IMG/VR virus record: IMGVR_UViG_3300045988_090415
Coordinates: 1 to 39,668 of that record
Direction: 5' to 3' (one strand)
DNA: 39,668 nucleotides
Source of the DNA: a virus
In this document: piece by piece, positions 156 through 34,780 of the stretch
Layout of the letters: each line of letters opens with the position of its first letter
How positions within the stretch are numbered: the first letter of the stretch is position 1
Notes under the pieces: generated by a model
The model's input: the letters and a program-made list of their open reading frames with translations, nothing else
What the model was told of the DNA's origin: nothing
The model's database searches: none
Made by a program: the position numbers and the translations under genes

Positions 156-165
156 CACCTTTTGT

Positions 166-1236
166 CTACACGGGTAACGTCATGTGACACGTGGGTAACG
201 AGTGTGTATAATACTTTAGGGTAGTCTCGATATTCGAGTGTCCCATAAGCACACTCACAGTCTTTACGTCCACATGGAATACCGTGATGAGCAAGGTAGC
301 ATAGGTGTGTCTTGTGTCGTACAGATGGTGTCCCTTGGAACTTCCCAGTACAGCTTCTACATACTTCTTAAAACGAACATTTACATTATCATGACTCAGA
401 TAACCGTAGGTACTCTTCTCAGACCTGAAGATACCTGCGGTTTTTTCTTCAGTGATTTTGTCTAGTAACCACAGACCCCACTTTGTCTCTATGGGAACCT
501 CCCGTATACTTGTGGAAGTCTTCATGGTTTCCTGTAGCTTGCCTTGGAATCCCAGTGATTTGTTGAAAGACACTTTGTCTTCCTTAATGTCTTCTCTGGT
601 CAGGGCAAGTATTTCCTGTGGTCTTGCTCCTGTAATAAAGGAAAGCACAATGTACACTTGGTATACCACAGGTAGGGTAGACAAATTCTCAATGGATAAC
701 AACTTTTGAACTTCCTCTAGGGAGAACACTTTCTTTTGTCTCTCTTGTCTTCCTTTTAACCTCCTTATGGCTTGTCGGGATTCCATAGGGTTGTTCTCAA
801 GATACCCTTCTAATACCGCTGTTTCTAGGATAGCTTTAAAGTTTTTCCTCCAGCGATCTAATGTAGAAGAAGCGTACCCCTTTGAGGACAGCCCTAGGAA
901 AAACCGATTTATGTCTTGAGGTGTTAAGTCAGAGAACTTTACATGTGCTACTTTACTGTTTTCTACATGTTTCCTATAGAAGTTCTTCAGACCGTTTAAG
1001 GTAGACGCTCGGTATACTCCCGATTTGAGTTCCATGAAGTGTTCAAAGTATTCAGCTACGGTAATAGGGGAGAAGTACTTGATGTCTTTCCCTTTGATGC
1101 CCATAAAGAACTTCTGGCACTCTTCGCGTGTATCAAAGGTTTTGCTAACTCTCTTACCTCCTGATACAGTAATAGTAGCCTTGAATCTTCCATTGGGCCT
1201 TCTCACGATTGACCCTGTACCTTTGTTTCTTCTCAT
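166..1236 (-). CDS. int: Tyrosine recombinase / phage integrase
   Basis: ORF 166-1278. Tyrosine-recombinase catalytic signatures are visible (GARPQEILAL, HHLYDTRHTYATLL, LMGHSNIETTLKYYTH). I prefer Met15 (MRRNKGTGSIV) because AAAGGAGGT lies just upstream. The start is ambiguous between 1236, 1260 and 1278. Confidence 0.9.
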   Translation of the reverse strand: MRRNKGTGSIVRRPNGRFKATITVSGGKRVSKTFDTREECQKFFMGIKGKDIKYFSPITVAEYFEHFMELKSGVYRASTLNGLKNFYRKHVENSKVAHVKFSDLTPQDINRFFLGLSSKGYASSTLDRWRKNFKAILETAVLEGYLENNPMESRQAIRRLKGRQERQKKVFSLEEVQKLLSIENLSTLPVVYQVYIVLSFITGARPQEILALTREDIKEDKVSFNKSLGFQGKLQETMKTSTSIREVPIETKWGLWLLDKITEEKTAGIFRSEKSTYGYLSHDNVNVRFKKYVEAVLGSSKGHHLYDTRHTYATLLITVFHVDVKTVSVLMGHSNIETTLKYYTHSLPTCHMTLPV

Positions 1237-1480
1237 GTAACCTCCTTTCCTTTTCCTCATGTACCTTATGTATATCATAGATTTTAAAAAATTACAGAAA
1301 ATTTATGAGGACATACATGAATGAACAGCACACAGCAGTTCCCCCGTATACCCCTCAGTCATACCACAGTTACAATAATTGAACACATGAGTATATTTTC
1401 ATATATCATTGAGTTTTACCTAACGTCTCGTAGTCCCTTATGGAACACAAGAGACCGCATAACAAAGCCATTTATAATAA

Positions 1481-1514
1481 CCCTGTTGCCTTAACGGTAG
1501 CGGGGTATTTTTTA
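1481..1514 (+). terminator. Possible intrinsic terminator facing incoming host read-through
   Basis: CCCTGTTGCC (1481-1490) pairs with GGTAGCGGGG (1496-1505) using several G-U pairs, with loop TTAAC, followed by TATTTTTTA. No plus-strand gene lies upstream, so its role is speculative. Confidence 0.3.
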
Positions 1515-1515
1515 G

Positions 1516-2343: not shown

Positions 2344-2347
2344 TTGT

Positions 2348-4634: not shown

Positions 4635-7193
4635 ATGATGACATTAGAACAACAGTTAGAACTTGAAAAGATGTACAAAGGTTTAGCAGAAAACCGTGCT
4701 TTGCAGGTATTGAACAAGGCGAAAGCAGACGGGGCCTATGAACGGACTCGTGTAGGTCAAGGCATTATGAATCACCTAGCAGAAACGTACTCAGCAAATG
4801 TACAAGCTTTCGTAGAAGATTGCATACAGCCTAAACGGGGTGTACAACCTGCCTACGCTAAAATCGTCAAAGATTACGCACTAGCCCTACAAGGTGACAC
4901 GAAAAAATTGGCTAGGCTTTGCGCTACGTTGTCTTTGAAAATTACTATTAGTGCTATGATGAGGCGTTCCCTCACTGCCAATAATATTGGTGGTGCAATC
5001 GGACTTGAATTAGAGCCAGAAGTAGAAGCAATGTCGTTTTTCGAAGACAAAGAAAACAAACGCTTTGACAAGAGCCTTAAAGAGCGTGTCAATTTCTCGT
5101 ACCGCCGTAATTTCATGGAGCATGTATACAAGGGTGTAGGCTTTACGTTCGCCAAGCACACTCCAAAAGAAAGAACCACACTAGGTATGCAGTTACTTGC
5201 TGTACTCGTGGAAACAACAGACTTCTTTGTTTTTCAAGAAGTATCGGAGGAAGGAAAGACACAGCCCTTACAAGTTCTCCCTACGGACATCTTTTTACAG
5301 GCTATAGCTAATGCAGAGGACAAGAGCGTGGGACAAGCCATTACGTATGTTCCAACTATTATTCCCCCGAAACCATGGACTAATTTTTGGGACGGGGGAT
5401 ACTACGGAGCTTTGTCTCAAAACAAAACCTTAATGCGCTACATTCCTTATGCAAGGTCTTCACAGACACGCAAGCTCTACACAGCCAGACTAAACGAACT
5501 TGATCTGTCTAGCCTTTACTCAGCGGTCAACGCTATTCAAGCGACAGCCTATAGAATTAACAAGTCTGTCTTAGAAGTCATCAAGCACTACTTAAATGTG
5601 GGTGGTGGAGCAGCAGGATTAGCAGAGACAAAACCTCTCGAACAGCTCCCACGCTTCCCTCATGCCTATGAGGACATTAAGGAAAACGAAGAGCTACTCA
5701 AGCAGTTCAAAGCACACAAAAAGAAGATGGTGGAAGTCATTCACAAGGAAAACCAGCGCAAAGGAAAGGCCCTGAGAGCTGTAATGATTATCAAAGTAGC
5801 TGAGGACTTTGCAAAGTATGACAAAATCTGGTTCCCGATGAACATAGACTTTCGGGGCCGTGTCTACCCAATCCCCACGGGCCTAAATCCACAGGGGGAT
5901 GACATGACAAAGGCCCTCTTGCAATACGCAGAGCCTACCCCCGTATCTGCTGAAGACGCTCCCGACGCCCTCAAGTGGCTGTCAATTCATGGTGCAGGAC
6001 TAGCAGGTCATGACAAAATTCCTCTGGAAAACCGTGTAGCATGGGTAGAGGAAAATAGGCAGAATATTTTGTCTAGTGCTGAAAATCCATTGGACTTTCC
6101 TTGGTGGCAAGAACAAGATAAGCCGTGGCAGTTTTTGGCGTGGACGATGGAATACAAGAGGGCTTTAGAATACTTAGACACACACAAGACCCTAGCAGGT
6201 TTTGACTGTCGTTGTACAATCGCATATGACGGTACATGCTCAGGTCTTCAGCACTACAGTTGTCTTCTCCGTGACCCTGTTGGCGGCTCCTCTGTCAACT
6301 TGATTGACCACGACAAACCAGCAGATATTTATAGAGAAGTTTCAGATAAGGTCTTGACAATGGTTAAGAAAGATGTTATAGAAGGAACCTTAAAAGGCAA
6401 GGAGCGGAAAGATGGTACATTTGGGCCAGGAACGAAGCAGCTGGCAGAAGCGTGGCTCGCTCATGGTATTAATCGCAAAGTATGCAAGCGTCCTGTCATG
6501 ACTCTAGCTTACGGAAGTGGGCAGTATGGTTTTGCTGACCAAGTTTATGAAGACACTGTAGCGGATAACCCTTGCTTTGCTGGTGTCGGTGAAAGACAAG
6601 CGGCTCAGTACCTAGCAAAGCTCATTTGGAAGGCAGTACAGACGACAGTCGTTGCCGCCATTGAAGGTATGGAGTGCTTAAAGAAGATTGCCACAGCCCT
6701 TGCAAAAGCGGATATGCCTGTCGAATGGGTGACACCAATGGGCCTGCCAATTCAGCAGATGTACCTAGCACGGAAAACGGAGTCGTTCAGATTGCGCCTT
6801 GGTAACTCCTCCACACGCTATCGTATCTATGTAACAACCGTAAGTGAGAACGAAGACGTAGACAGACACAAGCAAGCTACAGGGGTAGCTCCGAACTTCA
6901 TCCACTCCCTCGACGCTACACATCTCATGATGAGCATTAACGAAGCAAGTAGACAAGGGTGTGTGAACTTCAGTACCGTTCATGATTCGTTCGGGACTTC
7001 CCTCGGTGAAGCGGCTCGATTGCGTCGTATCATTAGACAAGAGTTAGTCAAGCTGTACACCGAGCATGATCCCTTAGCTGAGTTCTTGAGACATGCTGAA
7101 GAGCTGTTAGGGGAACCATTAGACATTGAACTGCCCGAAAAAGGTTCATTAGACATCAACTGTATCTTAGATAGTAAGTTCGTTTTCCACTAG
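4635..7193 (+). CDS. T7-like single-subunit DNA-dependent RNA polymerase
   Basis: 852 aa. Motifs align with T7 RNAP as I recall it: DFRGRVYP, YDGTCSGLQHYS, KRPVMTLAYGS, APNFIHSLDATHL and VHDSFGT. Confidence 0.95.
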   Translation: MMTLEQQLELEKMYKGLAENRALQVLNKAKADGAYERTRVGQGIMNHLAETYSANVQAFVEDCIQPKRGVQPAYAKIVKDYALALQGDTKKLARLCATLSLKITISAMMRRSLTANNIGGAIGLELEPEVEAMSFFEDKENKRFDKSLKERVNFSYRRNFMEHVYKGVGFTFAKHTPKERTTLGMQLLAVLVETTDFFVFQEVSEEGKTQPLQVLPTDIFLQAIANAEDKSVGQAITYVPTIIPPKPWTNFWDGGYYGALSQNKTLMRYIPYARSSQTRKLYTARLNELDLSSLYSAVNAIQATAYRINKSVLEVIKHYLNVGGGAAGLAETKPLEQLPRFPHAYEDIKENEELLKQFKAHKKKMVEVIHKENQRKGKALRAVMIIKVAEDFAKYDKIWFPMNIDFRGRVYPIPTGLNPQGDDMTKALLQYAEPTPVSAEDAPDALKWLSIHGAGLAGHDKIPLENRVAWVEENRQNILSSAENPLDFPWWQEQDKPWQFLAWTMEYKRALEYLDTHKTLAGFDCRCTIAYDGTCSGLQHYSCLLRDPVGGSSVNLIDHDKPADIYREVSDKVLTMVKKDVIEGTLKGKERKDGTFGPGTKQLAEAWLAHGINRKVCKRPVMTLAYGSGQYGFADQVYEDTVADNPCFAGVGERQAAQYLAKLIWKAVQTTVVAAIEGMECLKKIATALAKADMPVEWVTPMGLPIQQMYLARKTESFRLRLGNSSTRYRIYVTTVSENEDVDRHKQATGVAPNFIHSLDATHLMMSINEASRQGCVNFSTVHDSFGTSLGEAARLRRIIRQELVKLYTEHDPLAEFLRHAEELLGEPLDIELPEKGSLDINCILDSKFVFH

Positions 7194-7255: not shown

Positions 7256-7278
7256 TACTATAAAGAACACTTGTTTGG

Positions 7279-7302
7279 TTAATTGTCCCACATACAGAGG
7301 AA
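7279..7302 (+). promoter_or_regulatory. Phage-RNAP promoter P2 (consensus)
   Basis: Exact TTAATTGTCCCACATACAGAGGAA. By alignment to the T7 promoter (TAAT at -17 to -14, initiating G), the predicted +1 is G7297. Confidence 0.75.
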
Positions 7303-7394
7303 CCCTAAGTATTCCTAAGTAACTAAAGGAAGATTATTTAGGAGTAAGTAAGAGTAAGTATAGTTAAGTATTCCTAAGTATTTCTAGGGCAAAA
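7303..7394. repeat. AT-rich TAAGTA repeat block between promoters (candidate replication origin)
   Basis: TAAGTATTCCTAAGTA occurs at 7306-7321 and 7365-7380, with GTAAGTA iterations between. The position (after the RNAP gene, between tandem phage promoters) mirrors the T7 primary origin. Confidence 0.4.
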
Positions 7395-7418
7395 TTAATT
7401 GTCCCACATACAAGGGAA
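7395..7418 (+). promoter_or_regulatory. Phage-RNAP promoter P3
   Basis: TTAATTGTCCCACATACAAGGGAA, two mismatches to the consensus around +1. Confidence 0.65.
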
Positions 7419-7466
7419 GAAAACACACTATCCCTACCTCTGTGTCTACCACAAACTACTGTTTGG

Positions 7467-7490
7467 TTAATTGTCCCGCATACAGAGGAA
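7467..7490 (+). promoter_or_regulatory. Phage-RNAP promoter P4
   Basis: TTAATTGTCCCGCATACAGAGGAA, one mismatch. It shares the upstream TGTTTGG context with P2. Confidence 0.7.
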
Positions 7491-7519: not shown

Positions 7520-7954
7520 ATGAGCAATTCAAAGAAAGTCCTGCGTGATTATGAAACAGTCCGTGTGGATGTGCGTAATTTTGACGCTATTGATGGTGAC
7601 TATGTATACGGAGAAATCCAGAGAAATATGGATCTCGCAGGTGTCTTGTGCTATGAAGTTCGCTTGCGTGGTACTGACACGTACATTGTTGTCAATGAGG
7701 ACAGAGTGCAGAAAGTCGGAGAATATGACAAGCACGACAAGCACTACTTAGAAGCTGTTGTCGAACCCATTAAGGTGATGGAAAAGCTGTTCACGAAAGA
7801 AGAACTCAAAGGATTCATCAAAGGCAACATTTTGAAGTACCGTTTACGCATGGGACATAAGGACGACATTCAGAAAGAAATGGACAAGATTCGTGTCTAT
7901 GAGCAGTGGTTAGCAAAACTTGAAAGAGGTGAAGCACTGACAGATGCGGACTAG
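7520..7954 (+). CDS. Two-domain protein: N-terminal VRVDVRNF domain plus a C-terminal DUF3310 (SaV-like) domain
   Basis: AAGGAGG RBS before ATG 7520; the tracked ORF start at 7442 runs through promoter P4. The C-terminus HYLEAVVEPIKVMEKLF...GNILKYRLRMGHKDD...KIRVYEQWL fits the DUF3310 pattern. The N-terminus is paralogous to the ORF at 36662-36883. Confidence 0.6.
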   Translation: MSNSKKVLRDYETVRVDVRNFDAIDGDYVYGEIQRNMDLAGVLCYEVRLRGTDTYIVVNEDRVQKVGEYDKHDKHYLEAVVEPIKVMEKLFTKEELKGFIKGNILKYRLRMGHKDDIQKEMDKIRVYEQWLAKLERGEALTDAD

Positions 7955-8456
7955 AAAACCTTTGTCTATCATATTCAAGCCCTTACGGGATGACATTGAC
8001 GTACCTCAAATCAAGACACAGGGTTCAGCAGGAGCAGATATTGTTGTCCCTGATGATGTCGTTATCGAGCCATTCAGTATTCGTGGTAAAGGAACCCTAG
8101 TTCCCTTGGGGTTCTCTTTAGATATTCCCGAAGGGGTGCAAGTACATATCATGTTGCGATCAAGTGTCGGATTGAAGACCCCTATCCGTTTGTCTAATGG
8201 CGTCGGTCTGATTGATTCAGATTACAAGGGAGAACTCTGTTTACTACTTGACAATTTATCTAAAAATTCAATTCATATCAAAAGTGGTACTCGGATAGCA
8301 CAATTAGTGCCTTTTTCTACCCTAAAGTGGGGGTTTGAATTAATTGTCCCACATACAGAGGAAAGAAAACACATTAACCCTATCCAAAATAAAAAACGCA
8401 GTGGTGGATTTGGGTCTACCACAGGAACAAAGGAGACAAAAGCAAATGAAAATTAA
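7944..8456 (+). CDS. dut: dUTP diphosphatase (dUTPase)
   Basis: Motifs GSAGADI, GLIDSDYKGEL, RIAQLV and RSGGFGSTTG. Confidence 0.9.
   Translation: MRTRKPLSIIFKPLRDDIDVPQIKTQGSAGADIVVPDDVVIEPFSIRGKGTLVPLGFSLDIPEGVQVHIMLRSSVGLKTPIRLSNGVGLIDSDYKGELCLLLDNLSKNSIHIKSGTRIAQLVPFSTLKWGFELIVPHTEERKHINPIQNKKRSGGFGSTTGTKETKANEN
8340..8363 (+). promoter_or_regulatory. Phage-RNAP promoter P5, embedded in the dut coding sequence
   Basis: Exact 24-nt consensus. It is translated as part of ELIVPHTEERKH, between dUTPase motifs 4 and 5. Confidence 0.7.
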
Positions 8457-8985
8457 AGGCAAAGCATATTGGGCAAAAATTAGAACACCTGAAACATACA
8501 ATGGCCAGCCTGTAGGCTTCTCGATGCAGGTTTTGATGCCTGATGAAAATTTAGCAAAAATGAAAGCATACTTTGAAGCTAAATGTAAAGAAGAATTTGC
8601 GGGCAAGAAGATGTTAGGCGACATCACGATGCCGATTAAAACTACAGACGCAGGTCTGGAAATGGTCAAGGTTAAAACTAAGCATGTGTATAAAGACAAG
8701 GCAACAGGGGTAGAAAAACCGAAGGTTATCCCTGTATACAACGAATACGGCGAGCTGATTCCTGAAGATGTTCTTATTGGTAACGGTTCGGATGTAGAAG
8801 TTGTCGTCAATCCAAAACTGTACTATGAAAGCACAAAGAAGTGGGGCGTCCGCCTGTACCTTCAGTGCTTGATGGTAACGAATCTCGTTAAGTATTCTAA
8901 AGACGGTTCCGACGAACTGACATTTAAGAAACGAGATGCTAATGATGAGGCAGAAACCACGCTGGACGACGAGGTAGATTTCTAA
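8446..8985 (+). CDS. T7 gp2.5-like single-stranded DNA-binding protein
   Basis: AAGGAGA RBS before ATG 8446. IGNGSDVEVVVNPKLYY...WGVRLYLQCLMV resembles T7 gp2.5 (IGGGSKLKVKYSLVPYKW...SVKLQLESVMLV). Acidic C-terminus ending in DF, as in gp2.5. Confidence 0.75.
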   Translation: MKIKGKAYWAKIRTPETYNGQPVGFSMQVLMPDENLAKMKAYFEAKCKEEFAGKKMLGDITMPIKTTDAGLEMVKVKTKHVYKDKATGVEKPKVIPVYNEYGELIPEDVLIGNGSDVEVVVNPKLYYESTKKWGVRLYLQCLMVTNLVKYSKDGSDELTFKKRDANDEAETTLDDEVDF

Positions 8986-8986: not shown

Positions 8987-9457
8987 TTGTTTACAGGCGG
9001 TTTTCACACACCTGCTAAGACAAAACGAAGTAAGTATGAAGACACACTTACTGCTAACCTTGACAAAAAGAATAAAGAATATCATTACGAAGAATTTTCC
9101 CTTGAGTACACGGTAAAGCACAAGTACACTCCTGATTTTGTCTTGCCAAACGGCATTATTGTTGAGGCGAAGAATGGGGAAGGCGGCTTTGTCCGTGTGG
9201 GTAAAAAGGGAGGATTCTACAGAGGCTCATTGGATAGTGAAGCACGGGGAAAGATGCTGAAGGTAAAACGACAGTACCCCGAACTTGACATACGCTTTGT
9301 CTTTCCTAAAGACTTTAAATTTCAAAGTTTGAAGACAACGGCGAGTAAGTGGTGCGAGAAGAATGGCTTTAAGTACCACATTGGCAACACAATCCCTGAG
9401 TCTTGGTTTAAAGAAGAGGGCCAAATTAGCCCCAAACTAAAAAAGAAAGGAAAGTGA
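8987..9457 (+). CDS. T7 endonuclease I-like Holliday-junction resolvase
   Basis: YTPDFVLPNGIIVEAK, YPELDIRFVF and WCEKNGFKYH...IPESWFKE closely parallel T7 gp3. The start is apparently TTG, so the start is uncertain. Confidence 0.85.
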   Translation: MFTGGFHTPAKTKRSKYEDTLTANLDKKNKEYHYEEFSLEYTVKHKYTPDFVLPNGIIVEAKNGEGGFVRVGKKGGFYRGSLDSEARGKMLKVKRQYPELDIRFVFPKDFKFQSLKTTASKWCEKNGFKYHIGNTIPESWFKEEGQISPKLKKKGK

Positions 9458-9458: not shown

Positions 9459-9821
9459 ATGTTTAAATTCAGAGACAGAGAAGAAACTCTCTTCTACTCC
9501 TTTGTCTATAAAGACCTAGAAGGAAAAACTGTCTCCGAACTGTTGAAGGAAGCACGAAGAAAAGGAGCGTTTTCGTTACCGTATCACGCTGTAGTTCTCA
9601 AAAATGGCGAACTCGACCTCATGCGGCCCTTTGAAGCAGTCGGGGGTAGCGAACTTCCTTATAGTGCTTGTGGTGTTTATATCCTCGTGGACGCTGGATC
9701 TAAAGACACACTGTCGCACTTACAGAAAAAGCGGCTGGACGATTTAGTGAAGATGCTTCACGAGGACTATGCAGACATAGTAGAGGAAGAGTTCAAAGAT
9801 GAATTACAGCGAACCGATTAA
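9459..9821 (+). CDS. T7 gp3.5 (lysozyme/amidase)-like protein lacking the zinc ligands; probable RNAP regulator
   Basis: FKFRDREETLFYSF...PYHAVVLKNGELDLMRPFEAVGGSE aligns with T7 FKQRESTDAIFVHCS...GYHFIIKRDGTVEAGRDEMAVGSHA. The H17 equivalent is absent, and the protein ends before the H122/C130 region. Confidence 0.55.
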   Translation: MFKFRDREETLFYSFVYKDLEGKTVSELLKEARRKGAFSLPYHAVVLKNGELDLMRPFEAVGGSELPYSACGVYILVDAGSKDTLSHLQKKRLDDLVKMLHEDYADIVEEEFKDELQRTD

Positions 9822-11391
9822 GACACACCTACCTTGCCCTGATTGTGGTTCCTCTGATGCCTTGACAGAGTATAGCGATGGTCACACATACTGCTTCTCT
9901 TGCCAAACAGTACGAGGAACTACAGCACAGGGCGGACATACAGTCAACCTCATACCCCTTACCTCTTTGTCTCTCACTCCCTTAAAGCGTCGTGGAATCA
10001 TGTCGACTACGTGCGAAAAATACCACTATTATACAGGGTATCACAATGGAAAGCCCGTACAGGTTGCATGTTACTTTGACGATGCGGGGGAACTAATAGG
10101 ACAGAAAGTGCGGTACCAAGACAAAACCTTTGAAACGCTAGGTAAGATATCTAAGCGTTTCTTTGGTCAAGAGCTTTTTGAGAGTAGAGGCAAGCTAGTT
10201 ATTACAGAGGGCGAGATTGATTGCCTCACGGTATCACAATTACAGAATAATAAATATCCCGTTGTGTCTATCCCATGTGGGGTGGCTTCAGCAAAGAAAG
10301 TCCTGACACACAACATGGAATGGCTCTCACAGTTTGATGAGGTCATCTTGATGTTTGACATGGACGAAGCGGGGAGAAAAGCTGTTAAAGATTGTGCTGG
10401 ACTTCTGAAGGGTCTGAAGGTGGCTAATTTACCCCTAAAAGACCCTAACGAGTGTCTACTGGCTAATAAGGGGCAATCAGTTATCAATGCTATTTGGAAC
10501 GCTAAGGCATACAAACCAGACGGCATTGTCAATGGTGCTGACTTATGGGAGATGGTAGACAGCGAAGAAGACGAAATGAGCTATACATACCCTTGGGATA
10601 TTCCGCTAAATGACATGACAAGGGGACTCCGTAAGGGGGAACTTGTTGTTGTCACAGCAGGTACAGGGGTAGGCAAGACAACGTTTGTAAGACAAATCAT
10701 GTATGACTTGGGCGTTAAGAAAAACCTCAAAGTAGGATGCATGATGCTTGAAGAAAATGTAAAGCGTACTTCTGTAGGGCTTATGTCTATACACACAGGA
10801 GTTCGATTGCACTTATCAAGACACGCCATAAGTGAAGAAGAGTATCGGAAGGCATTTGATGAGACACTGGGGACAGGAAACTACGTACTCTACAATCACT
10901 TTGGTAGTCTTGAAGGTGACAACTTATTAAACAAGATTAGATATTTAGCTATTTCTGAGGAGTGTGACTTCATCGTCCTTGACCATGTGTCTATTGCTAT
11001 CTCTGGTCTTGAAGGAGACAATGAGCGAAAACTGATTGACTACCTCATGACACAGATGCGAAGCATTGTAGAAGAGACAGGTGTAGGCATGATTGTCATA
11101 TCGCACTTGCGAAGACCTGACAACTCTCAGAAGTCACATGAAGAAGGTGGTATCACCTCACTGGCCCAACTTAGAGGTTCACACGCAATTTCACAGTTAT
11201 CCGATATTGTCCTTGGCTTAGAGAGGAATCAACAGGAATCTAATGAAGAGCTGAGAAACACAACTCGTGTGCGTGTCTTAAAGAACCGCTTTACGGGCGA
11301 AACTGGTATAGGTGGCTACCTGACATATAACAGAAAAACAGACCGCTTGGAAGTAGCAGAGAAGGAAGATGATGATGAAGCAGAATTTTAA
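9799..11391 (+). CDS. T7 gp4-like bifunctional primase-helicase
   Basis: Cys4 zinc finger CPDCGSSDALTEYSDGHTYCFSC (T7: CDNCGSSDGNSLFSDGHTFCYVC). TOPRIM motifs (ITEGEIDCLT, MFDMDEAG). Walker A GTGVGKTT. DnaB-like C-terminal half. Confidence 0.92.
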   Translation: MNYSEPIKTHLPCPDCGSSDALTEYSDGHTYCFSCQTVRGTTAQGGHTVNLIPLTSLSLTPLKRRGIMSTTCEKYHYYTGYHNGKPVQVACYFDDAGELIGQKVRYQDKTFETLGKISKRFFGQELFESRGKLVITEGEIDCLTVSQLQNNKYPVVSIPCGVASAKKVLTHNMEWLSQFDEVILMFDMDEAGRKAVKDCAGLLKGLKVANLPLKDPNECLLANKGQSVINAIWNAKAYKPDGIVNGADLWEMVDSEEDEMSYTYPWDIPLNDMTRGLRKGELVVVTAGTGVGKTTFVRQIMYDLGVKKNLKVGCMMLEENVKRTSVGLMSIHTGVRLHLSRHAISEEEYRKAFDETLGTGNYVLYNHFGSLEGDNLLNKIRYLAISEECDFIVLDHVSIAISGLEGDNERKLIDYLMTQMRSIVEETGVGMIVISHLRRPDNSQKSHEEGGITSLAQLRGSHAISQLSDIVLGLERNQQESNEELRNTTRVRVLKNRFTGETGIGGYLTYNRKTDRLEVAEKEDDDEAEF

Positions 11392-11860
11392 GATTCCCGT
11401 GTATGCTCATGGGGTCACGATGAATGAAATCCCCGACAAAATTTCTCTGGTGATTACATTAGGGAACTGCGAATGTCATTGCAAGGGGTGTCATAGTGAT
11501 TACTTGTGGGATACACATACTTGTGAAGAACAGACACCTGAAGAGCTTTTGTCTCTCATCAAGAGTTATAAGAGTGTCACCAACACGGTACTCTTTATGG
11601 GAGGAAACCGAAATCATATGGACTTTGAGGAGTTTGCTGAGAATGTCCTGAAGCCTATCCATGACTTAGGTATTCATATTGGTATCTATTTGGGGGCATG
11701 GGATGCTATGGACTTATATACAGCTTGTAAGTATTGCCGCTGGGTAAAAGTAGGGGCGTACAGAGAAGAGCTGGGAGGTCTGGACAATCCCAACACGAAC
11801 CAGATTTTCCTCGAAGTACAGAACTATAAATTTCACAAGGGAGACACAGGATGGAAGTAA
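11369..11860 (+). CDS. nrdG: Anaerobic ribonucleotide reductase activating protein (radical SAM)
   Basis: CxxxCxxC cluster within CECHCKGC. Size and its position next to nrdD. Confidence 0.7.
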   Translation: MMMKQNFKIPVYAHGVTMNEIPDKISLVITLGNCECHCKGCHSDYLWDTHTCEEQTPEELLSLIKSYKSVTNTVLFMGGNRNHMDFEEFAENVLKPIHDLGIHIGIYLGAWDAMDLYTACKYCRWVKVGAYREELGGLDNPNTNQIFLEVQNYKFHKGDTGWK

Positions 11861-12078
11861 GTATTTACGTCATTAAAGATTGTATGTATTGTGACACACT
11901 GCTTAAAGGGCTTCCAAAGGTAGTCAAGAAATTTCCGAACGTAGCCTTTAAGGTAACGTGTGTGACTGAATCAAAAGAATTTGAACTGTTCCCTACAGTA
12001 GTTATAGGGGATAAAACTTTGTCTCCGTGCATTTATGCGGAGGACATGGAGAAAGAGGTGAGACATGCCGTTACTTAA
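11851..12078 (+). CDS. Glutaredoxin/NrdH-like small redoxin
   Basis: 75 aa with an N-terminal CxxC (IKDCMYCDTL) after a beta-strand. Located between nrdG and nrdD. Confidence 0.55.
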   Translation: MEVSIYVIKDCMYCDTLLKGLPKVVKKFPNVAFKVTCVTESKEFELFPTVVIGDKTLSPCIYAEDMEKEVRHAVT

Positions 12079-13852
12079 TTTAACGCAAGAACAGATTGAA
12101 GAAAAAATTAAATACATTGACCACTACATTCATAGTCAGAACAGTGCAAGTGGCTCCTTGGTGGATGCTAATGCCAATGTAGACACAAAGAATATTGGTA
12201 TCTTGGAAGCTGAGATGTATAAGCCTGATACCATTCAGGTAAATCGTGCTTTGGTACAGCGGAAACTCACGGAGAAGTATGGTAAGAAGATTGCAGAGAA
12301 GTACATTGAGGACATCGAAAAGCATAGAATTTATATTCATGATGAAACTTCATTACGACCTTACTGCGCTTCTATCACGCTGTTCCCCTTCCTGCTCAAT
12401 GGCACAAAGCCCTTGGGAGGTACAAGCGAAGCTCCGAAGAACATTCATAGTTTCTGCGGCTCCTTTGTCAACCTTGTATATCAGGTGGCTTCTGGGTTTG
12501 CAGGTGCGATCGCTACGGTAGAGTTCCTTCTGTACTTTGATTATTTTGCAAAGAAGACATGGGGTACAGACTACATCGACTTACACACAGCTGACGTTAG
12601 ACAGGCTTTGCAAGGCGTCGTATATGCTTTGAATCAGCCCGCTTCTGCCCGTGGCAATCAGAGCGTCTTCTGGAATATCTCGGTGCTGGACAGATTTTAC
12701 TTTGAACAGCTTTTTGGGGGCTTTAAGTTCCCCGACGGCACACAGCCTGTATATGAAGGTTCGTTCCGTAAATTGCAGATGTTCTTTATGGAATGGTTCA
12801 GACAAGAGAGAGAAAGAGCATTACTCACGTATCCCGTACTGACCGCTTCCATCTTGGTGGATGCTGAAGGAAAACCTAGAGACAAACATTTTGCATGGAC
12901 TTGTGCTGAAGAAATGTCTAAGGGCTTGAGCTTCTTTGTCTATGAGAGTGATAGCGTAGACTCCTTATCTTCGTGCTGTCGTTTGAGGAATGAGTTCACG
13001 GACAACACGTTCTCCTATACATTAGGTGCAGGTGGGGTGTCTACAGGTTCCGTTCAGGTAATCACGATTAATATGAATCGCTACGTGCAGACAAGGGAAG
13101 AGCCTTTTAGTACGCTGATTGATCGCGTACACATGTATCTCTTGGCACACAGAGCGGTCATTGAGGATTACATTGAAGGCGGCTTACTTCCTGCTTACTC
13201 TACAGGATTCATCAGCTTAGACAAACAGTTCTGTACCATTGGTATCAATGGTATGCTGGAGGCTTCTGAGTATGTAAAGGGAAAAGCAGACACAGACTTT
13301 TTCTCGAACTATTTAAAAGACATCTATAAAAGCAACAAGGAGTGGAAAGAAGACACAGGGGTTAAGTTCAATACAGAGTTTGTCCCTGCTGAAAACTTAG
13401 GCGTTAAAAATGCTAAGTGGGACAAAGAAGATGGCTTGAAAGTCCCCCGTGCTTGCTATAACAGCTACTTCTTCCCTGTTGAAGATGATTCCTACAATAT
13501 CATTGATAAACTTAGACTGCATGGCAAGGAAAATACACAGTGGCTTGACGGCGGTTCTGCTTGCCACCTCAACATGGAACAGCTTATGTCTAAAGAACAG
13601 GCGTATGACCTGATTTGTATTGCTGGCAAGCTTGGTGTCAACTATTGGACATTTAATGTCCTTATGACAGTTTGTAATGACTGTGGTTTTATCAATGTCA
13701 ATACGGAAAATCACTGTACAAAGTGTGGCTCTAAAGACATTGACTATGCGACACGGGTCATTGGGTATCTCAAGCGTATTTCTAGTTTCTCTACAGAAAG
13801 ACAAAAGGAAGCTGGTTTGCGTATCTACAATAAGGCAGGTGATAGTTATTGA
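12065..13852 (+). CDS. nrdD: Anaerobic (class III) ribonucleoside-triphosphate reductase
   Basis: C-terminal Cys4 cluster CNDCGF...CTKCGS, followed by the glycyl-radical motif TRVIGYL. 595 aa. Confidence 0.88.
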   Translation: MPLLNLTQEQIEEKIKYIDHYIHSQNSASGSLVDANANVDTKNIGILEAEMYKPDTIQVNRALVQRKLTEKYGKKIAEKYIEDIEKHRIYIHDETSLRPYCASITLFPFLLNGTKPLGGTSEAPKNIHSFCGSFVNLVYQVASGFAGAIATVEFLLYFDYFAKKTWGTDYIDLHTADVRQALQGVVYALNQPASARGNQSVFWNISVLDRFYFEQLFGGFKFPDGTQPVYEGSFRKLQMFFMEWFRQERERALLTYPVLTASILVDAEGKPRDKHFAWTCAEEMSKGLSFFVYESDSVDSLSSCCRLRNEFTDNTFSYTLGAGGVSTGSVQVITINMNRYVQTREEPFSTLIDRVHMYLLAHRAVIEDYIEGGLLPAYSTGFISLDKQFCTIGINGMLEASEYVKGKADTDFFSNYLKDIYKSNKEWKEDTGVKFNTEFVPAENLGVKNAKWDKEDGLKVPRACYNSYFFPVEDDSYNIIDKLRLHGKENTQWLDGGSACHLNMEQLMSKEQAYDLICIAGKLGVNYWTFNVLMTVCNDCGFINVNTENHCTKCGSKDIDYATRVIGYLKRISSFSTERQKEAGLRIYNKAGDSY

Positions 13853-14016: not shown

Positions 14017-15870
14017 GTGTTAATATTCGACATTGAAACAGACGGTTTACTGGAGGATATGACAAAAATTCACTGTATGTGTATCAAGGACACCAAAGAG
14101 AATAAAATGTACAGGTTTAGACCTGACGAAGTAGAAGCAGGAGTGCGGATGCTGATGAGTGGTGACACAATTTGTGGGCATAACATTATAGCGTTCGACA
14201 TTCCTGCTATCTCTAAGGTGTTTCCGTGGTTCCATATAGGAAGAGACAAAGTAGTAGACACTCTTGTCTATGCTCGATTGGTATTCTCTGAGATTAACTA
14301 CATTGACAATAAGCTAACTAGAACAGGCGTTCTTCCTTCAAAACTCTATGGCTCTCACTCTTTAAAGGCGTATGGATATCGCTTGGGTGTTCTCAAGGGA
14401 ACTTATGCGAACGACTATGAAGCAGAGGATGTATGGGCTATATTCAACGAAGAGATGCTTGATTACAATGAGCAAGACGTTGTAGTAACGGAAGCTTTGT
14501 ATAACAAGTGTCGTAAAAAGAAGACAACAGTACAGGCGCTTGATCTGGAGCATAAGGCACAGTGGTTGATGCAGAAGATGGAACACAATGGCTTTACATT
14601 TGATATGGCTAAGGCTGAAAAGCTTTTGTCTACCCTTCTTGCAGAGCGGGAGAAAGTGTTGTCTAAGCTGAAAGATAAATGTCCTGCGATTCCCGACAAA
14701 GTGTTTGTCCCTAAGAGAGACAATGTGAAGATGGGATATAAGAAGGGCGTTCCCATTCAGAGATACAAGGAGTTCAACCCCAACAGTCGCCAGCAAATCC
14801 TGTGGATTCTGAAAGACCACTATGGGTATCCATTCGACAATGACGACATGTGGAATGACAACGGAAACATACAGCTGAACGAAGAGACATTCAAGCTCAT
14901 TCAGAAAGACCCGAAAGCTTCTGAAGAAGTCAAGGAGTTGGCAGAGCTGTTCTCTACTAACTTACTCCTGACTAAACGGTTAGGACAGCTCAGGGATGGT
15001 AAAAATGGTTGGATGAAACTTGTGTCTTCTGACGGTCGCTTACATGGGCGAGTAAATCCCAATGGTGCTATTACAGGTAGAGCGACACACTCACATCCCA
15101 ACATTGCACAGGTTCCTCACGTAGGTTCCCCCTATGGCGCAGAGTGTCGTGAGTTATTCACGGTTCCCGATGGTTGGTTTCAGGCTGGCGTGGATGCCTG
15201 TGGGCTGGAACTTAGATGTCTCTCCCACTACTTATATCCTTTTGACAACGGGGAGTATGCACATGAATGTGTTGAAGGGGATATTCACACGAAGAATCAG
15301 CTGGCCGCAGGATTGCCAGAGAGAAACATGGCAAAGACGTTTATCTATGGGTTCCTTTATGGTGCTGGGGACGCAAAGATTGGAGAAATTGTTGGAGGTA
15401 CAGCGGAGCATGGTGCAGAACTACGGAAGAAGTTCTTAAAGGCAACACCTGCTATCAAGAAACTCCAGCAAAGTGTCAAAAACCTTTTGTCTACTTACAA
15501 CGTGGAAATGAGACAAAGGGAGTGGAAGACACGGTATTTGAAGGGTTTGGATGGCCGATTGCTTTATACTCGGTCAATCCACAGTGCGCTGAATCTCTTG
15601 TTACAGTCGGCAGGTGCTATTGTCTGTAAATACTGGATTGTACGTACAGAGGAACGCTTGCTGAACCTTGGGTTAGACCATGGTAAAGATTTTCAGCTTA
15701 TGGCGTGGATACACGATGAGCAACAGATTGCCTGTCGTACTGAAGGCATTGCTGAAATTGTCATTAGAGAAGCCCAACAGGCTATGAGAGACACACAGCA
15801 CTATTTCAACTTCAGGTGTCAATTAGATACTGAAGGTAAGATTGGTAAGAACTGGGCAGATTGCCATTAG
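14017..15870 (+). CDS. T7 gp5-like family A DNA polymerase with 3'-5' exonuclease domain
   Basis: Exo motifs FDIETDGL, HNIIAFDIP and YNEQDV. Pol motifs DACGLELRCL, KTFIYGFLYGAG and WIHDEQQ. GTG start after AGGAGTGA. Confidence 0.93.
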   Translation: MLIFDIETDGLLEDMTKIHCMCIKDTKENKMYRFRPDEVEAGVRMLMSGDTICGHNIIAFDIPAISKVFPWFHIGRDKVVDTLVYARLVFSEINYIDNKLTRTGVLPSKLYGSHSLKAYGYRLGVLKGTYANDYEAEDVWAIFNEEMLDYNEQDVVVTEALYNKCRKKKTTVQALDLEHKAQWLMQKMEHNGFTFDMAKAEKLLSTLLAEREKVLSKLKDKCPAIPDKVFVPKRDNVKMGYKKGVPIQRYKEFNPNSRQQILWILKDHYGYPFDNDDMWNDNGNIQLNEETFKLIQKDPKASEEVKELAELFSTNLLLTKRLGQLRDGKNGWMKLVSSDGRLHGRVNPNGAITGRATHSHPNIAQVPHVGSPYGAECRELFTVPDGWFQAGVDACGLELRCLSHYLYPFDNGEYAHECVEGDIHTKNQLAAGLPERNMAKTFIYGFLYGAGDAKIGEIVGGTAEHGAELRKKFLKATPAIKKLQQSVKNLLSTYNVEMRQREWKTRYLKGLDGRLLYTRSIHSALNLLLQSAGAIVCKYWIVRTEERLLNLGLDHGKDFQLMAWIHDEQQIACRTEGIAEIVIREAQQAMRDTQHYFNFRCQLDTEGKIGKNWADCH

Positions 15871-16551: not shown

Positions 16552-16725
16552 ATGAATAAATATCGTGTTTGCATTAAATACAATCGGAACTCTACAGTCA
16601 TTGTGGAAGCTGACTCTATCGAAGAAGCTGAGACGATGGTAGACAAAGACCCCTTTGGATTCCCGTATGAAATGGATGAAGAGACACAAGAAGTTTATGT
16701 AGAGGAGGAATTAGGAAATGTCTAA
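16552..16725 (+). CDS. Hypothetical small acidic protein (57 aa)
   Basis: Below the ORF-track cutoff. My translation: MNKYRVCIKYNRNSTVIVEADSIEEAETMVDKDPFGFPYEMDEETQEVYVEEELGNV. It fills the gap exactly and overlaps the thyX start by 8 nt. Confidence 0.45.
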   Translation: MNKYRVCIKYNRNSTVIVEADSIEEAETMVDKDPFGFPYEMDEETQEVYVEEELGNV

Positions 16726-17296
16726 CGTACAACTGCTATCTATGACAGTTGACCCTTTAACTTTAATTCGTCGTGCCATGGGTGAATGTTATCAGCGTCC
16801 CCTTGGTGTAAAGACTGTGCAGAAAGCGATTGAGGCAGGACATTTGTCTGTCCTCGAACATTGCTATGCATCTTTTGAAATCACTGTATCTACGTCGGTA
16901 TTACTCCAACTTACTCGACATAGACACCTGTCCTTTACGGTGCAGAGTTCGAGAGGTTGTGAGCTGAAGACACATCACAAGACAGGTATCGAATATATCG
17001 ACAAACTGCTGGAGGAACACATGGCAGACTACGCTTATGTCTATCAGGAAGCAGTAAAGAAAGAAGATGCCGCTTACCTGTTGCCGAAGGGTGCTGAGTA
17101 TACCTTAGTAATCACTGGCAATTTCCGTGTGTGGTACGAATATCTACCCAAGCGTATGTGCAAGAGAGCGCAACAGGAACACAGACAGTTGGCTATGGAG
17201 ATTCAGAAGCAGTTGGCAAAGGCATGCCCTGAAATCTTTGATAGGGACTTCATGAAGTGTGATATGTGTACAGAAAGGAGCTGTTCGTTTAGCTAA
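16718..17296 (+). CDS. thyX: Flavin-dependent thymidylate synthase
   Basis: ThyX signature RHRHLSFTVQSSR (RHRxxSxxxxSxR), preceded by LSVLEH. Confidence 0.88.
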   Translation: MSNVQLLSMTVDPLTLIRRAMGECYQRPLGVKTVQKAIEAGHLSVLEHCYASFEITVSTSVLLQLTRHRHLSFTVQSSRGCELKTHHKTGIEYIDKLLEEHMADYAYVYQEAVKKEDAAYLLPKGAEYTLVITGNFRVWYEYLPKRMCKRAQQEHRQLAMEIQKQLAKACPEIFDRDFMKCDMCTERSCSFS

Positions 17297-18051: not shown

Positions 18052-18098
18052 TACAATATGGGGAAACCGTAGAAAGAGCTTATGAAGTCGCTGAGCGA

Positions 18099-18500
18099 AT
18101 GTGGGAACTTAGACACAATAATTCACTATGCGAAAAGTTTGCTGATAAAGATTGTATATGGATGACCATTAGTGAGCTGAATAAGACAAAGAACATTGCC
18201 TACTTCTACACTGAAGACGGTGATTTTGTAGGTGCAGTCGCTTTTGTCTTGAATACAAATTTTGCATGGTGGGCCGATAACTTGAGGGTACTTGAGGAGG
18301 TCTTTGTTGTGTCTATGAATCCTAAGTATGCTGGGTTTGGCAGGATTGCGGCGCAGTTCCTCAAGGACATGAGTGATGCCAATGATTGCGCCTTTGTCTA
18401 CGCAGGAGCATTTCTTGGTAAAAATAATAGCTACACGAAGGTGGGGTACTCTAAGTCGTACCCTACTTTTGTCTATATGGGAGGTGCTGGAGATGCATAA
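18099..18500 (+). CDS. Hypothetical protein, possibly GNAT-like acetyltransferase
   Basis: The segment VVSMNPKYAGFGRIAAQFL resembles GNAT motif A. The start is uncertain; the tracked ORF starts at TTG 18009, overlapping the exonuclease gene. Confidence 0.3.
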   Translation: MWELRHNNSLCEKFADKDCIWMTISELNKTKNIAYFYTEDGDFVGAVAFVLNTNFAWWADNLRVLEEVFVVSMNPKYAGFGRIAAQFLKDMSDANDCAFVYAGAFLGKNNSYTKVGYSKSYPTFVYMGGAGDA

Positions 18501-32732: not shown

Positions 32733-34417
32733 ATAGTGTGAATTTAAAAGCGAGCGTTTCCTTTGTGGGAGATGGCTCTACGAATAAATTTTACTTTGGG
32801 TTCGACTATATCAATAAGCAGTTCGTGAAGGTGCAAGTGGGGGCTGAGAGTTCTCCCCTCACTTACCTGTCTGACTATACTGTGGATGATCGTAGTGTTA
32901 CCCTAACGGATACTCCTGCTGTAGGGGTAGCTATCAGGGTATACCGTGAGACTCCTTCAGACAGGATTATTGAGTGGGCAGATGGGGCTTTTATTAAGGC
33001 ATCCCAGATGACACTGGAAAATTTACAGCAGTTACATTTGATTGAAGAAGCGCAGGATTACCCTATTCTTAATTCTTTGTCTAAATATCCTGATGGTTTT
33101 AATTTTAATGCTTTGGGTTCCCGTATTATTGGTGTAAGTGACCCTAGAGACCCCCAAGATGTCGTAACGAAACACTACATGGAGAGTGTGCAGGACGGCT
33201 TTGTAGCTCGTAACACTTCCTTATTGGAACAGACAACTACACAAGCGACCAATGCCAAAAATAGTGCGTCCAGTTCAGCTACATCAGCTTCCCAGAGTGC
33301 TTCTAGTGCCAGTGCTTCTGAAACATCTAATCAGTCTGCTAAGAAGTGGGCTGAGTCTACAGATTCCCCAGACAATCAGGCAGATACGGACAGCACGACA
33401 GGAAAGACACAGAGTAGTCGTAGTTGGGCATTGTATAGTAAGGCAAAAGCACAGGAAGCGGAAACGTCTGCAACGAACGCTAAGACCTCGGAGACAAACG
33501 CAAAGGCTTCTGAAACCAATGCGAAAACCTCGGAAACGAAAGCGGCTACGTCGGAAGCTAATGCAAAGACTTCGGAAACTAATGCTAAGTCCTCGGAAAC
33601 TAAATCTAAGGATTCTGAAAATGCCGCTCGTGTGTCTGAACAGAACGCCGCTGAGAGCGCAAGGGTGGCAACGGAGAACGCTATGGACTTCAATATGTTG
33701 AAGCGAAATAAAGCGTACTCCATTGGTGACATTGCATATTCTTCTTACCTTCCTTCATGGGCAAGGCTGGAATGTGTCACAGCAGGTACAACGGCAGACA
33801 CAGTACCTTTCTCTATTACTACGGTGTCTAGTGGTGGGGTACTAATTAGTGATGGTACAGTAACTTGGATTGTTGATGATGTACGGGATATGACGCCTGT
33901 TGGGTGTATACGAGGGAGTTTGTTCTTACCTAAAGGGTACATTAAGGCCAATGGGGCTCCGGTATATAGGGCAGATTATCCAAGACTCGTACAGTTTATA
34001 GACAGTAATAATTTATGGACGGATGACACAGCGAATAATGCAGGGTTGTTCGGTAAGGGAGATGGGAACAGTACCTTTGTGCTTCCTGATTATCGGGAGC
34101 GTATGCTTCAATATACAGATGGGTATATAGGTAGGCAGAGATACGCAGGTCTCCCTAATCTTTGGGGTGGGTTTAGTGCTACGAGTAATGTAGCAAGAAA
34201 TGTTCCTTCTTCTGTGCTTATAAAGGCTGGTGGCTGTATGAGAAATAACAGCGTGACACAGGATATTGTTACTCTTCATACAGGAACGCATGATGTAACA
34301 CTTTTTGATACTTATGACCAGGTAATTTTTGACGCCAGCACTTTTAATAGTATTTATGGTTCATCAACCACAGTTCAGCCCCCTTCAATCAACGTCATCC
34401 CTGTAATTAGATACTAG
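32726..34417 (+). CDS. Tail fiber: T7 gp17-like N-terminal adaptor, heptad-repeat shaft, C-terminal phage tail-collar domain
   Basis: The N-terminal roughly 110 aa parallel T7 gp17 (ends LHLIEEAQD versus MHVAEEARD). C-terminal KANGAPVYRADYPRLVQFI...GDGNSTFVLPDYRERML fits the tail-collar motif. Confidence 0.85.
   Translation: MVNSVNLKASVSFVGDGSTNKFYFGFDYINKQFVKVQVGAESSPLTYLSDYTVDDRSVTLTDTPAVGVAIRVYRETPSDRIIEWADGAFIKASQMTLENLQQLHLIEEAQDYPILNSLSKYPDGFNFNALGSRIIGVSDPRDPQDVVTKHYMESVQDGFVARNTSLLEQTTTQATNAKNSASSSATSASQSASSASASETSNQSAKKWAESTDSPDNQADTDSTTGKTQSSRSWALYSKAKAQEAETSATNAKTSETNAKASETNAKTSETKAATSEANAKTSETNAKSSETKSKDSENAARVSEQNAAESARVATENAMDFNMLKRNKAYSIGDIAYSSYLPSWARLECVTAGTTADTVPFSITTVSSGGVLISDGTVTWIVDDVRDMTPVGCIRGSLFLPKGYIKANGAPVYRADYPRLVQFIDSNNLWTDDTANNAGLFGKGDGNSTFVLPDYRERMLQYTDGYIGRQRYAGLPNLWGGFSATSNVARNVPSSVLIKAGGCMRNNSVTQDIVTLHTGTHDVTLFDTYDQVIFDASTFNSIYGSSTTVQPPSINVIPVIRY
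33464..33652 (+). repeat. Nine tandem 21-bp (heptad TSETNAK-type) repeats inside the tail fiber gene
   Basis: TSATNAK, TSETNAK, ASETNAK, TSETKAA, TSEANAK, TSETNAK, SSETKSK, DSENAAR, VSEQNAA, read in frame. These repeats also generate the spurious overlapping ORFs at 33252-33701 (+) and 33376-33732 (-). Confidence 0.8.
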
Positions 34418-34435
34418 AAAGGAGTTGTTAAAATA

Positions 34436-34780
34436 ATGGAAGATAAAGTAAAAATAGTCTATGCTTTTAATCTTTTAACTAAGGAATATGAAGGGTCTAA
34501 AGTGCTTGATAAAACTGACCAGAGTCCGATAAGTGGTGCTTGGCAAATTCCTTGTAATATGGTAGAAGTAACTCCCCCTGAAATTCCAGAAGATCACAAA
34601 TGTATCTGGGATGGTACGCAGTGGATTCTTAAAGAAGTTGAAAAACCAAAAGAACCTGAAATTCCAGAAATATCGCAGGTTCCAGAAAGCACAACACAGA
34701 CACCTTCTTTGTCTGGACGCATTGCAGCTATTGAGGATGCTGTCAACACCTTAATGGAAGGAGTGGGTACAAATGGCTAA
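34436..34780 (+). CDS. Hypothetical protein, possibly a tail-fiber assembly/chaperone-like protein
   Basis: 114 aa directly after the fiber gene, with an AAGGAG RBS. Assigned by position only. Confidence 0.35.
   Translation: MEDKVKIVYAFNLLTKEYEGSKVLDKTDQSPISGAWQIPCNMVEVTPPEIPEDHKCIWDGTQWILKEVEKPKEPEIPEISQVPESTTQTPSLSGRIAAIEDAVNTLMEGVGTNG

Follow-up and report, generated by a model that had tools for sequence, protein, structure and literature searches.

The stretch analysed here (the window; IMG/VR record IMGVR_UViG_3300045988_090415, 39,668 nucleotides) is a T7-like podovirus genome of 39.7 kb with 42.9% G+C, the plus strand of which holds nearly all genes, among them a single-subunit RNA polymerase, a gp4-type primase-helicase, a family-A DNA polymerase and a T7-type large terminase (Table 1). 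Scattered through it is a seven-base word, T(T/G)TGTCT, and this report concerns that word and the enzyme that may read it. The first 98 nt (1-98) recur as a perfect direct repeat in the last 98 nt (39571-39668). This repeat codes for the C-terminal membrane segment of an RND efflux permease (MGITVVFGTSIATIFGVFLIPMMFIIVETFGH) and matches the 3' end of the RND permease gene of Megasphaera intestinihominis (98%) and M. elsdenii (97%). Because the terminal repeats are identical and match this gene end, the window is an excised prophage with attL and attR at its ends, from a host of the Megasphaera elsdenii group of gut bacteria. The repeat is probably the att core: on integration, the phage would enter an acrB-like gene at its 3' end and provide a replacement C-terminus.

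Many relatives of the window were found in IMG/VR, and no close one in the GenBank phage collection. A search of species-representative genomes for the RNA polymerase and an exact-match look-up of the integrase gave no result.

A sharply defined heptamer on both strands

An earlier, sequence-only reading of the window had reported that the heptamer TTTGTCT/AGACAAA is over-represented, and the counts bear this out: 93 copies are present compared with 9.0±3.2 in dinucleotide-preserving shuffles (largest 21). The 52 plus-strand copies it had tallied, from 161-167 to 34708-34714, were exact. For the complement we found 41 copies instead of 36, with the first (679-685) and last (33492-33498) correctly placed, and two of its example coordinates move by 10 (7971 to 7961 and 30873 to 30863), the other examples being correct. 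Overlooked was a sister word, TGTGTCT/AGACACA, which is nearly as enriched (21 copies on the plus strand and 46 on the minus strand, 67 in total). The true word is T(T/G)TGTCT, with 160 sites in the window, 73 on the plus and 87 on the minus strand. The TTTGTCT variant does stop at 34.7 kb, as had been described, but the degenerate word runs on to 39131. The TGTCT core occurs 327 times compared with 85 expected at zero order.

The same reading had taken the word for a DNA-level signal and not a peptide motif, naming beforehand a codon-preserving null as a possible refutation; two such nulls were run. The codon null shuffles synonymous codons within genes, with protein sequences and per-gene codon usage fixed. 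The strict null also fixes every codon-junction dinucleotide, leaving just 12.5% of bases movable. Neither reproduced the 160 sites: the codon null gave 33.9±4.5 (z=28) and the strict null 66.0±5.5 (z=17), its 200 shuffles reaching at most 80. Enrichment is independent on each strand under both nulls; under the codon null, 12.4±2.6 sites are expected on the plus strand (z=23) and 21.4±3.8 on the minus strand (z=17). Coding sequence is overlapped by 156 of the 160 sites, and non-coding DNA has 4 sites compared with 0.84 expected. The GTC trinucleotide alone is not enriched in the window (z=2.6, codon null). The DNA-level claim is fully supported by both nulls and by the synonymous-site conservation given below.

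A sequence logo has information only across (Y)T(T/G)TGTCT, with none beyond these 8 positions and no dyad symmetry. The base upstream is a pyrimidine at 117 of the 160 sites, a preference already described from the sequence. In a tolerance profile, any single substitution at positions 1 or 3-7 lowers the enrichment from ~4.6x to 0.4-2.2x, whereas at position 2 T and G serve equally well and A is partly tolerated (2.5x). Positions 1-3 are T, T/G and T, with A and C not tolerated apart from this partial A, and the T after GTC (position 7) is as essential as the G, T and C themselves (positions 4-6). Near-variants of the word are at or below expectation. So sharply defined and strand-asymmetric a 7-mer implies a sequence-specific reader.

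Site density is ~4 per kb window-wide (~1 per 250 bp counting both strands), and spacing is near-exponential, as in a Poisson process (coefficient of variation ~1), with a per-strand mean of 445-541 nt and a largest gap of 3.05 kb. Sites lie in all three frames and both orientations, with a preference for coding-permitted frames: 48 read xxT-KTG-TCT, 15 TTT-GTC-Txx and 57 xxA-GAC-AMA, and other frames are used too. These counts agree with the earlier description of Leu-Ser and Phe-Val frames and of a complement found mostly as xxA-GAC. Such scatter over both strands and all frames is the pattern of a density-type signal.

The right-end module (34781-39570; lysis genes and terminase) has 0 TTTGTCT and 11 TGTGTCT, compared with 93 and 56 in the rest of the genome; the word stands at 2.3 per kb in the last ~5 kb, as the TGTGTCT variant only. 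The same TGTGTCT-only right end is present in the window's 98-99% relatives, whereas 84%-identity relatives carry both variants there. A recent import of this end from a TGTGTCT-using phage, of the kind of clade B described below, was considered, but the terminase agrees with the primase phylogeny and the 84% relatives have both variants, so this import was rejected.

A phage-specific word maintained at synonymous positions

An integrase homologue led to a 366-kb metagenomic contig (L080) on which a related T7-like prophage adjoins host chromosome. Its prophage half has 34 sites compared with 3.7 expected, and its host half 3 compared with 2.7. Another prophage at the same site, in the cultured isolate Megasphaera sp. 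AM44-1BH (L114), has 23 sites compared with 3.4 expected, next to host DNA with 4 compared with 3.0; a cultured lysogen thus exists. With the host gene adjoining the L080 prophage, 35 Megasphaera-type loci totalling 690 kb were retrieved, in which T(T/G)TGTCT occurs 130 times compared with 169.6 expected (0.77x) and TGTCT stands at 0.72x. The phage carries ~4.0 sites per kb, its host 0.19. A DnaE-type prophage that is unrelated but occupies the same kind of site has the word at 1.7x. Because host DNA lies below expectation and word density changes stepwise at two prophage-host junctions, the word belongs to the phage and not to the host.

Against relatives at ~71% DNA identity, sites are conserved 3.5-4x above phase-matched 7-mers (22 of 59 compared with 5.9). 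About 60% of sites are not common to the window and these relatives, and density is unchanged; such turnover at constant density marks a density-type signal and not a fixed set of operators. Among 7-mers for which the overlapped amino acids are identical in both genomes, 16 of 26 sites are conserved compared with 4.2 expected (L010, p=3e-7), and conservation at synonymous positions is similar in five further relatives. Because the excess persists where the overlapped amino acids are identical, the word is maintained by selection at synonymous positions.

Table 1. Word sites, genes and other features of the window. Copies of the TGTGTCT variant are marked g.
Feature	Position	Strand	Details
T(T/G)TGTCT, plus strand	161-39131	+	52 TTTGTCT and 21 TGTGTCT (g); starts: 161 306g 457 482 574 735 2438 2484 4007 4044 5411 6068 7441g 7961 8189 9137 9296 9501 9966 10263g 10986g 11548 12018 12935 14625 15021g 15486 16843 17332 17498g 17626 18243 18308g 18393 18468 18775g 19249 20005 20023 20125 21082g 21602g 22038g 22566g 22683 23208 23763 23885 23906 24092 24183 25097 25513g 26284g 26516 26920g 26932 27175 27370 27514 27901 27943g 29465 30263g 30863 31928 32501 33076 33631g 34708 36032g 36072g 39125g
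T(T/G)TGTCT, minus strand (AGACA(A/C)A on the plus strand)	679-38973	-	41 AGACAAA and 46 AGACACA (g); plus-strand starts: 679 2957 4111 5045 5257g 5626 6176g 6864g 7219 8014g 8434 9018 9040g 9704g 9821g 10119 10690 11842g 12181g 12880 13219 13288g 13351g 13799 14244 15511 15789g 15980 16193 16262 16641 16682g 16968g 17508 18111g 18184 18606 19279g 19513 19651g 20098g 20394g 20581g 20676g 21695 22031 22395 22710g 22782g 23258g 23459g 23507g 23978g 24061g 24140g 24629 24731g 25058g 25395 25669g 26098 26848 26896 27060g 27424 27766g 29375 29821 30071 30312 30668 31121 31409 31754g 32042 32656g 33405g 33492 33796g 35510g 35705g 35945g 36200g 37154g 37421g 38473g 38967g
Tyrosine integrase	166-1278	-	Pfam/PHROG scans
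Single-subunit RNA polymerase	4635-7193	+	
Promoter cluster with AT-rich repeats (candidate primary origin)	7272-7490	+	promoters 7272, 7388 and 7460; TAAGTAT repeats 7298-7382; just downstream of the RNA polymerase gene
dUTPase	7944-8456	+	
gp2.5-like single-stranded DNA-binding protein	8458-8985	+	replisome partner; PHROG 112, E=6e-14
Endonuclease I	8987-9457	+	
gp4-type primase-helicase	9799-11391	+	530 amino acids; proposed reader of the word; Pfam Zn_Ribbon_Prim, Helic-prim_T7_N, Toprim_2, DnaB_C
Zinc-binding domain segment	9823-9918	+	residues 9-40 THLPCPDCGSSDALTEYSDGHTYCFSCQTVRG; aligns to T7 gp4 residues 13-44
NrdG and NrdD	11369-13852	+	
Family-A DNA polymerase	14017-15870	+	would extend primers; Pfam DNA_pol_A, E=9e-37
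ThyX	16718-17296	+	
5'-3' exonuclease	17296-18051	+	
T7-type large terminase	37578-39296	+	structural genes lie upstream
Promoter cluster with AT-rich repeats (candidate secondary origin)	39286-39416	+	promoters 39286 and 39314; same AT-rich repeats 39351-39416; right end

The phage primase as candidate reader

We infer that the word is read by the phage's own gp4-type primase-helicase. This protein aligns full-length to T7 gp4 structures (6n7i; E=3e-123), and in its zinc finger the four Cys are retained along with the S-D-G-H-T segment. T7 His33, which lies in this segment, is implicated in template recognition (PMC5737085). In T7, the zinc-binding domain recognises 5'-GTC-3', the 3' C of which is not copied, and the primase adds only A or C to pppAC, on predominantly G/T templates, at the sites GGGTC, TGGTC and GTGTC (PMC2910064; PMC12839067). 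Binding and primer length in T7 are also influenced by G/T-rich flanks and by the bases 3' of the pentamer (PMC12839067; PMC6136900). The word, GTC preceded by T, T/G and T, matches this template grammar, in which the 5' positions are G or T only.

The word shifts with the clade. In clade A (primase identity 78-98%), TTTGTCT is the top word. In its sister, clade B (~65%), the both-strand words are GTGTCT, GGGTCT and GGTCTT/TGGTCT, which are the three canonical T7 sites GTGTC, GGGTC and TGGTC plus a T. Relatives with YTD-H and DGH(G/A)Y zinc fingers (~50%) have TGTCT(T) among their top both-strand words, and the GTCT core is enriched in all His-type relatives of clades A and B and of the YTD-H clade (strict null, z=3-10). 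In two relatives the zinc-finger His is replaced, by SDGS in L043 (primase identity 65%) and DSGQ in L030 (61%); neither has a GTC word (z=-0.1 and z=-1.7, respectively), and a search of both for a different word found none.

A primase site, the first proposal of the sequence-only reading, is the best supported of the explanations considered, because the GTC core, the G/T flank, the conserved zinc finger, the sister-clade words and the His-loss relatives agree. We regard it as an evenly balanced proposition that this primase-helicase initiates preferentially on T(T/G)TGTCT templates, a site of extended specificity that selection has brought to high density; the priming role of the candidate sites is predicted from comparison with relatives and with T7.

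On this proposal, the template would be read 3' to 5', with the 3' C of GTC and the following T recognised by the zinc-binding domain and left uncopied, so that C and T would form a two-base 'cryptic' element. AtTwinkle, a gp4-family primase, likewise needs two cryptic 3' bases (PMC5737085). Synthesis would start opposite the T of GTC and run on through G, T, (T/G) and T to yield a primer pppA-C-A-(A/C)-A, made from ATP and CTP only, as in T7. A requirement for ~7 bases would leave chance sites sparse (~1 per 2-5 kb per strand), whereas the loose pentamers of T7 are abundant by chance. Because such a site is rare by chance, selection for adequate priming, acting mostly via synonymous codon choice, could have raised the density to one site every ~450-540 nt on each of the two strands.

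Several observations weigh against a primase reader. The T7-canonical GGGTC and TGGTC are slightly depleted in the window under the codon null, with GTGTC and TTGTC enriched; set beside the enrichment of all three T7 pentamers in the sister clade, this pattern argues for a putative variant specificity and not for T7 identity, and the strict T at positions 1 and 7 is without direct precedent in T7. Strand polarity is absent, as the near-equal strand counts do not switch along the genome relative to the candidate origins. Polarity is a weak criterion, because TGGTC in T7 itself is also unpolarised under the looser codon null (79/55 and 62/46). Many distant phages with His-type zinc fingers and lower primase identity, including T7 and T3, show no GTCT enrichment; a His-type finger thus looks necessary inside this group, though it is plainly insufficient. 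The correlation with loss of the His comes from two independent lineages only.

The model phages also speak against it. Under the strict null, the known primase sites of T7 number 320 compared with 296.5 expected (z=2.9), an excess of ~8%, and the canonical sites of T3 are flat (z=0.2), with T3 GGTCT at z=4.5. GCA, the trinucleotide reported for SP6 primase, is flat in SP6 (z=0.7). Under the codon null, TGGTC ranks 4th of 512 pentamers in T7 and GGTCT ranks 1st in T3 (L125), where GGTCT/AGACC is the top both-strand pentamer. These controls do not strongly validate the k-mer method. Primase specificity does not as a rule leave an imprint on the genome, and the magnitude seen here needs a special explanation.

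Other words surfaced in the relatives and model phages. GATTG, TGATT, AAGGT and CCTTG are recurrent both-strand enriched words in T7 (L086), T3 and SP6. In L039, TCAGG/CTGAAG fell from min-z 6.8 and 4.3 to 3.4 and 2.6 under codon-aware nulls, still near the top for that locus. The best both-strand word of L056, which has an SDGS zinc finger, is GTTGCA(C) (min-z ~3.5-4.2, looser null), which contains GCA; in L063, also with SDGS, GTTGCAC is second among 7-mers (min-z 3.4, looser null) and is not in the strict-null top list. The GTTGCAC words may be due to chance. AAGGCT (L029, L056-L064), CTGCTG and CTTCGA vanished under codon-aware nulls.

Sequence-specific priming is textbook knowledge for T7, the sites of which are loose pentamers with almost no imprint on the T7, T3 and SP6 genomes; here a discrete heptamer recurs every ~250 bp. 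In the literature searched, we found no description of such genome-wide word enrichment. The sites of T7 gp4, 5'-(G/T)(G/T)GTC-3' (primers pppACCC, pppACCA and pppACAC), are like the window word in their GTC core, whose 3' C would be cryptic in the word too, and in having G/T only 5' of GTC, so that the primer would again consist of A and C, and the two proteins are full-length homologues with Cys4 and His33. The putative window site differs in its ~7-base length, in needing T at positions 1, 3 and 7 and in apparently leaving the T7-favoured GGGTC and TGGTC unused. An excess of at most ~8% (strict null) in T7, T3 and SP6 contrasts with ~5-fold over the codon null, on both strands, in the window. 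The plant organellar AtTwinkle, with the template 5'-(G/C)GGA-3', has two cryptic bases that resemble the apparent 'CT' pair in GTCT (PMC5737085). Its sequence and its zinc-finger motif (CXRXKC) are different, it works in eukaryotic organelles, and no genome-wide enrichment has been reported for it.

If the primase proposal is true, it describes a bacterial-virus enzyme of the gp4 family whose specificity is extended and includes a two-base cryptic element. Sequence alone would suffice to predict the primase specificity of uncultured phages, with the words of clades A and B as ready-made test substrates, and replication, like transcription, might be phage-selective through a sequence code. If it is wrong, the word points to some other recognition system spanning the genome of a T7-like phage, which would be an even more novel case.

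A stronger version, which we hold tentatively and consider somewhat doubtful, is a replicative 'self' code, in which a primase with ~7-nt specificity and two cryptic bases has co-evolved with a genome saturated in its site. The phage replisome would then prime ~20-fold more densely on phage than on host DNA, in parallel with T7-type RNA polymerases, which dedicate transcription to phage promoters, and sister clades would hold different versions of the code (TKTGTCT and KKGTCTT). If so, the k-mer statistics of a genome could directly reveal the specificity of its primase, and the co-evolution of the two could hinder module exchange or serve as a marker of it.

Other explanations, promoters and prophage features

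The strongest alternative, though we think it unlikely, is that the word is the site of another conserved phage factor, a 'self' tag for condensation, packaging, nuclease protection or Chi-like recombination by a phage enzyme. A sharp, phage-specific 7-mer that is indifferent to orientation in its distribution and under purifying selection would suit such a factor, as would a magnitude unlike that of known primase sites in T7, T3 or SP6. Word-positive lineages also have in common DUF3310 and the open reading frames (ORFs) at 9459-9821 and 18009-18500, which are core genes of unassigned specificity. The sequence-only reading had proposed a phage DNA-binding protein, and the data are compatible with one but offer no candidate: the genes common to word-positive lineages are core replication and transcription genes only, no accessory gene co-occurring with the word was found across relatives, and the lone helix-turn-helix protein (2625-2969) occurs only in the window. 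The GTC core, the G/T-only flank and the three T7 pentamers of the sister clade would also have to be coincidence. No methyltransferase, modification or nuclease candidate for such a role was found in Pfam and PHROG scans of 20 window ORFs, some small ORFs lying outside the scan. A restriction-modification or DNA-modification target does not fit, as the word is enriched and not avoided and the 20 ORFs scanned include no modification gene.

Improbable, in our view, is a mutational or conversion drive tied to priming or repair, in which mis-templated primers or biased repair turn near-matches around GTC into perfect ones. The enrichment is lineage-specific and tracks the replication module, near-variants look as though drained into the perfect word, and the ~60% turnover leaves density constant, all of which fit a drive. 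Conservation at synonymous positions, ~4-fold above controls, points instead to maintenance, although a drive could mimic it, and the essential T 3' of the cryptic C falls outside the stretch that would template a primer. We know of no such conversion-drive mechanism in T7-type replication.

Seven T7-type phage promoters share the consensus TTAATTGTCCCACATACAGAGGAA (starts 4593, 7272, 7388, 7460, 8333, 39286 and 39314). Each is ~23-31 nt, and all are plus-strand, intergenic and co-oriented. The consensus has TTGTC in common with the word, a likeness to which the sequence-only reading had drawn attention, and it could suggest a role for the word in transcription, whether as a partial promoter or as a site where the phage RNA polymerase lands or pauses. 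This is very hard to sustain. None of the seven promoters is a word site, and the word is equally frequent in the non-transcribed orientation. Promoter specificity cores differ across lineages in the same frame (TCCCACA, GCACACA in L018, AGACACC in L024 and L048) while the GTCT-core word persists; in L018 and L024 the word is shared and the promoter is not. The common TTGTC is a coincidence: the promoter is a distinct element of 23 nt, and its core varies independently of the word. Promoters of the T7 group, ~23 nt long and specific to their RNA polymerase, do resemble the word as phage-lineage-specific signals for a phage-encoded polymerase-type enzyme, and either kind of signal would reserve an activity for phage DNA. 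The window has only 7 promoters, which are long, lie between genes and all run in one orientation, whereas the word has 160 copies of 7 nt, mostly intragenic and on both strands.

A host-genome-wide word, whether uptake-like, Chi-like or compositional, acquired through amelioration or selection, was a reasonable prior for an over-represented asymmetric word and had been put forward from the sequence. We found no support for it, and it is refuted for the host DNA sampled: the 690 kb of Megasphaera-type DNA is below expectation, density steps at the L080 and L114 junctions, and the unrelated prophage at the same site type reaches 1.7x. Chi sites and DNA uptake sequences are over-represented asymmetric 5-10-mers read by RecBCD/AddAB or the competence machinery. 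The window word is like them in being short, sharp, non-palindromic, dense and scattered via synonymous choices, with turnover at constant density; theirs is a cellular chromosome, usually with replication-linked skew, whereas the window word is phage-lineage-specific and shows no such skew switch. Codon usage, dipeptide content or dinucleotide bias as the source of the word can be dismissed, despite its frame preferences and the loss of several apparent words in relatives under codon-aware nulls, given the strict-null result and enrichment on each strand and in non-coding DNA.

AT-rich short repeats (TAAGTAT-like units) lie directly downstream of both promoter clusters. By this arrangement, 7272-7490 is a candidate primary replication origin and 39286-39416 a candidate secondary one; T7 and T3 annotations place the primary origin at a position equivalent to the former, and the two repeat sets together have the placement of the primary and secondary origins of T7 and T3.

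The window also encodes dUTPase, the anaerobic ribonucleotide reductase NrdD with its activase NrdG, and ThyX, a nucleotide-metabolism set that is unusual for a T7-like phage and fits a strictly anaerobic host. The phage has a G+C of 43%, compared with 56-57% for the host loci with the best matches to the att core (L091, L109). An unrelated prophage (L084 and L085, 1-11086), with a DnaE-type polymerase, Rha/ANT and Sequestin domains and an integrase 53% identical to that of the window, occupies the same position beside the RND permease gene of another Megasphaera-type genome; the att site is therefore common to different phage types. In the AT-rich stretch between the integrase gene and the divergent early genes, a 26-nt perfect direct repeat, TTATTTCGTATTACGAACTATTTGTA, occurs at 1516-1541 and 1573-1598, and each copy contains a 13-nt palindrome, TTCGTATTACGAA. 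By its arrangement, the pair looks like repressor operators of a lysogeny switch.

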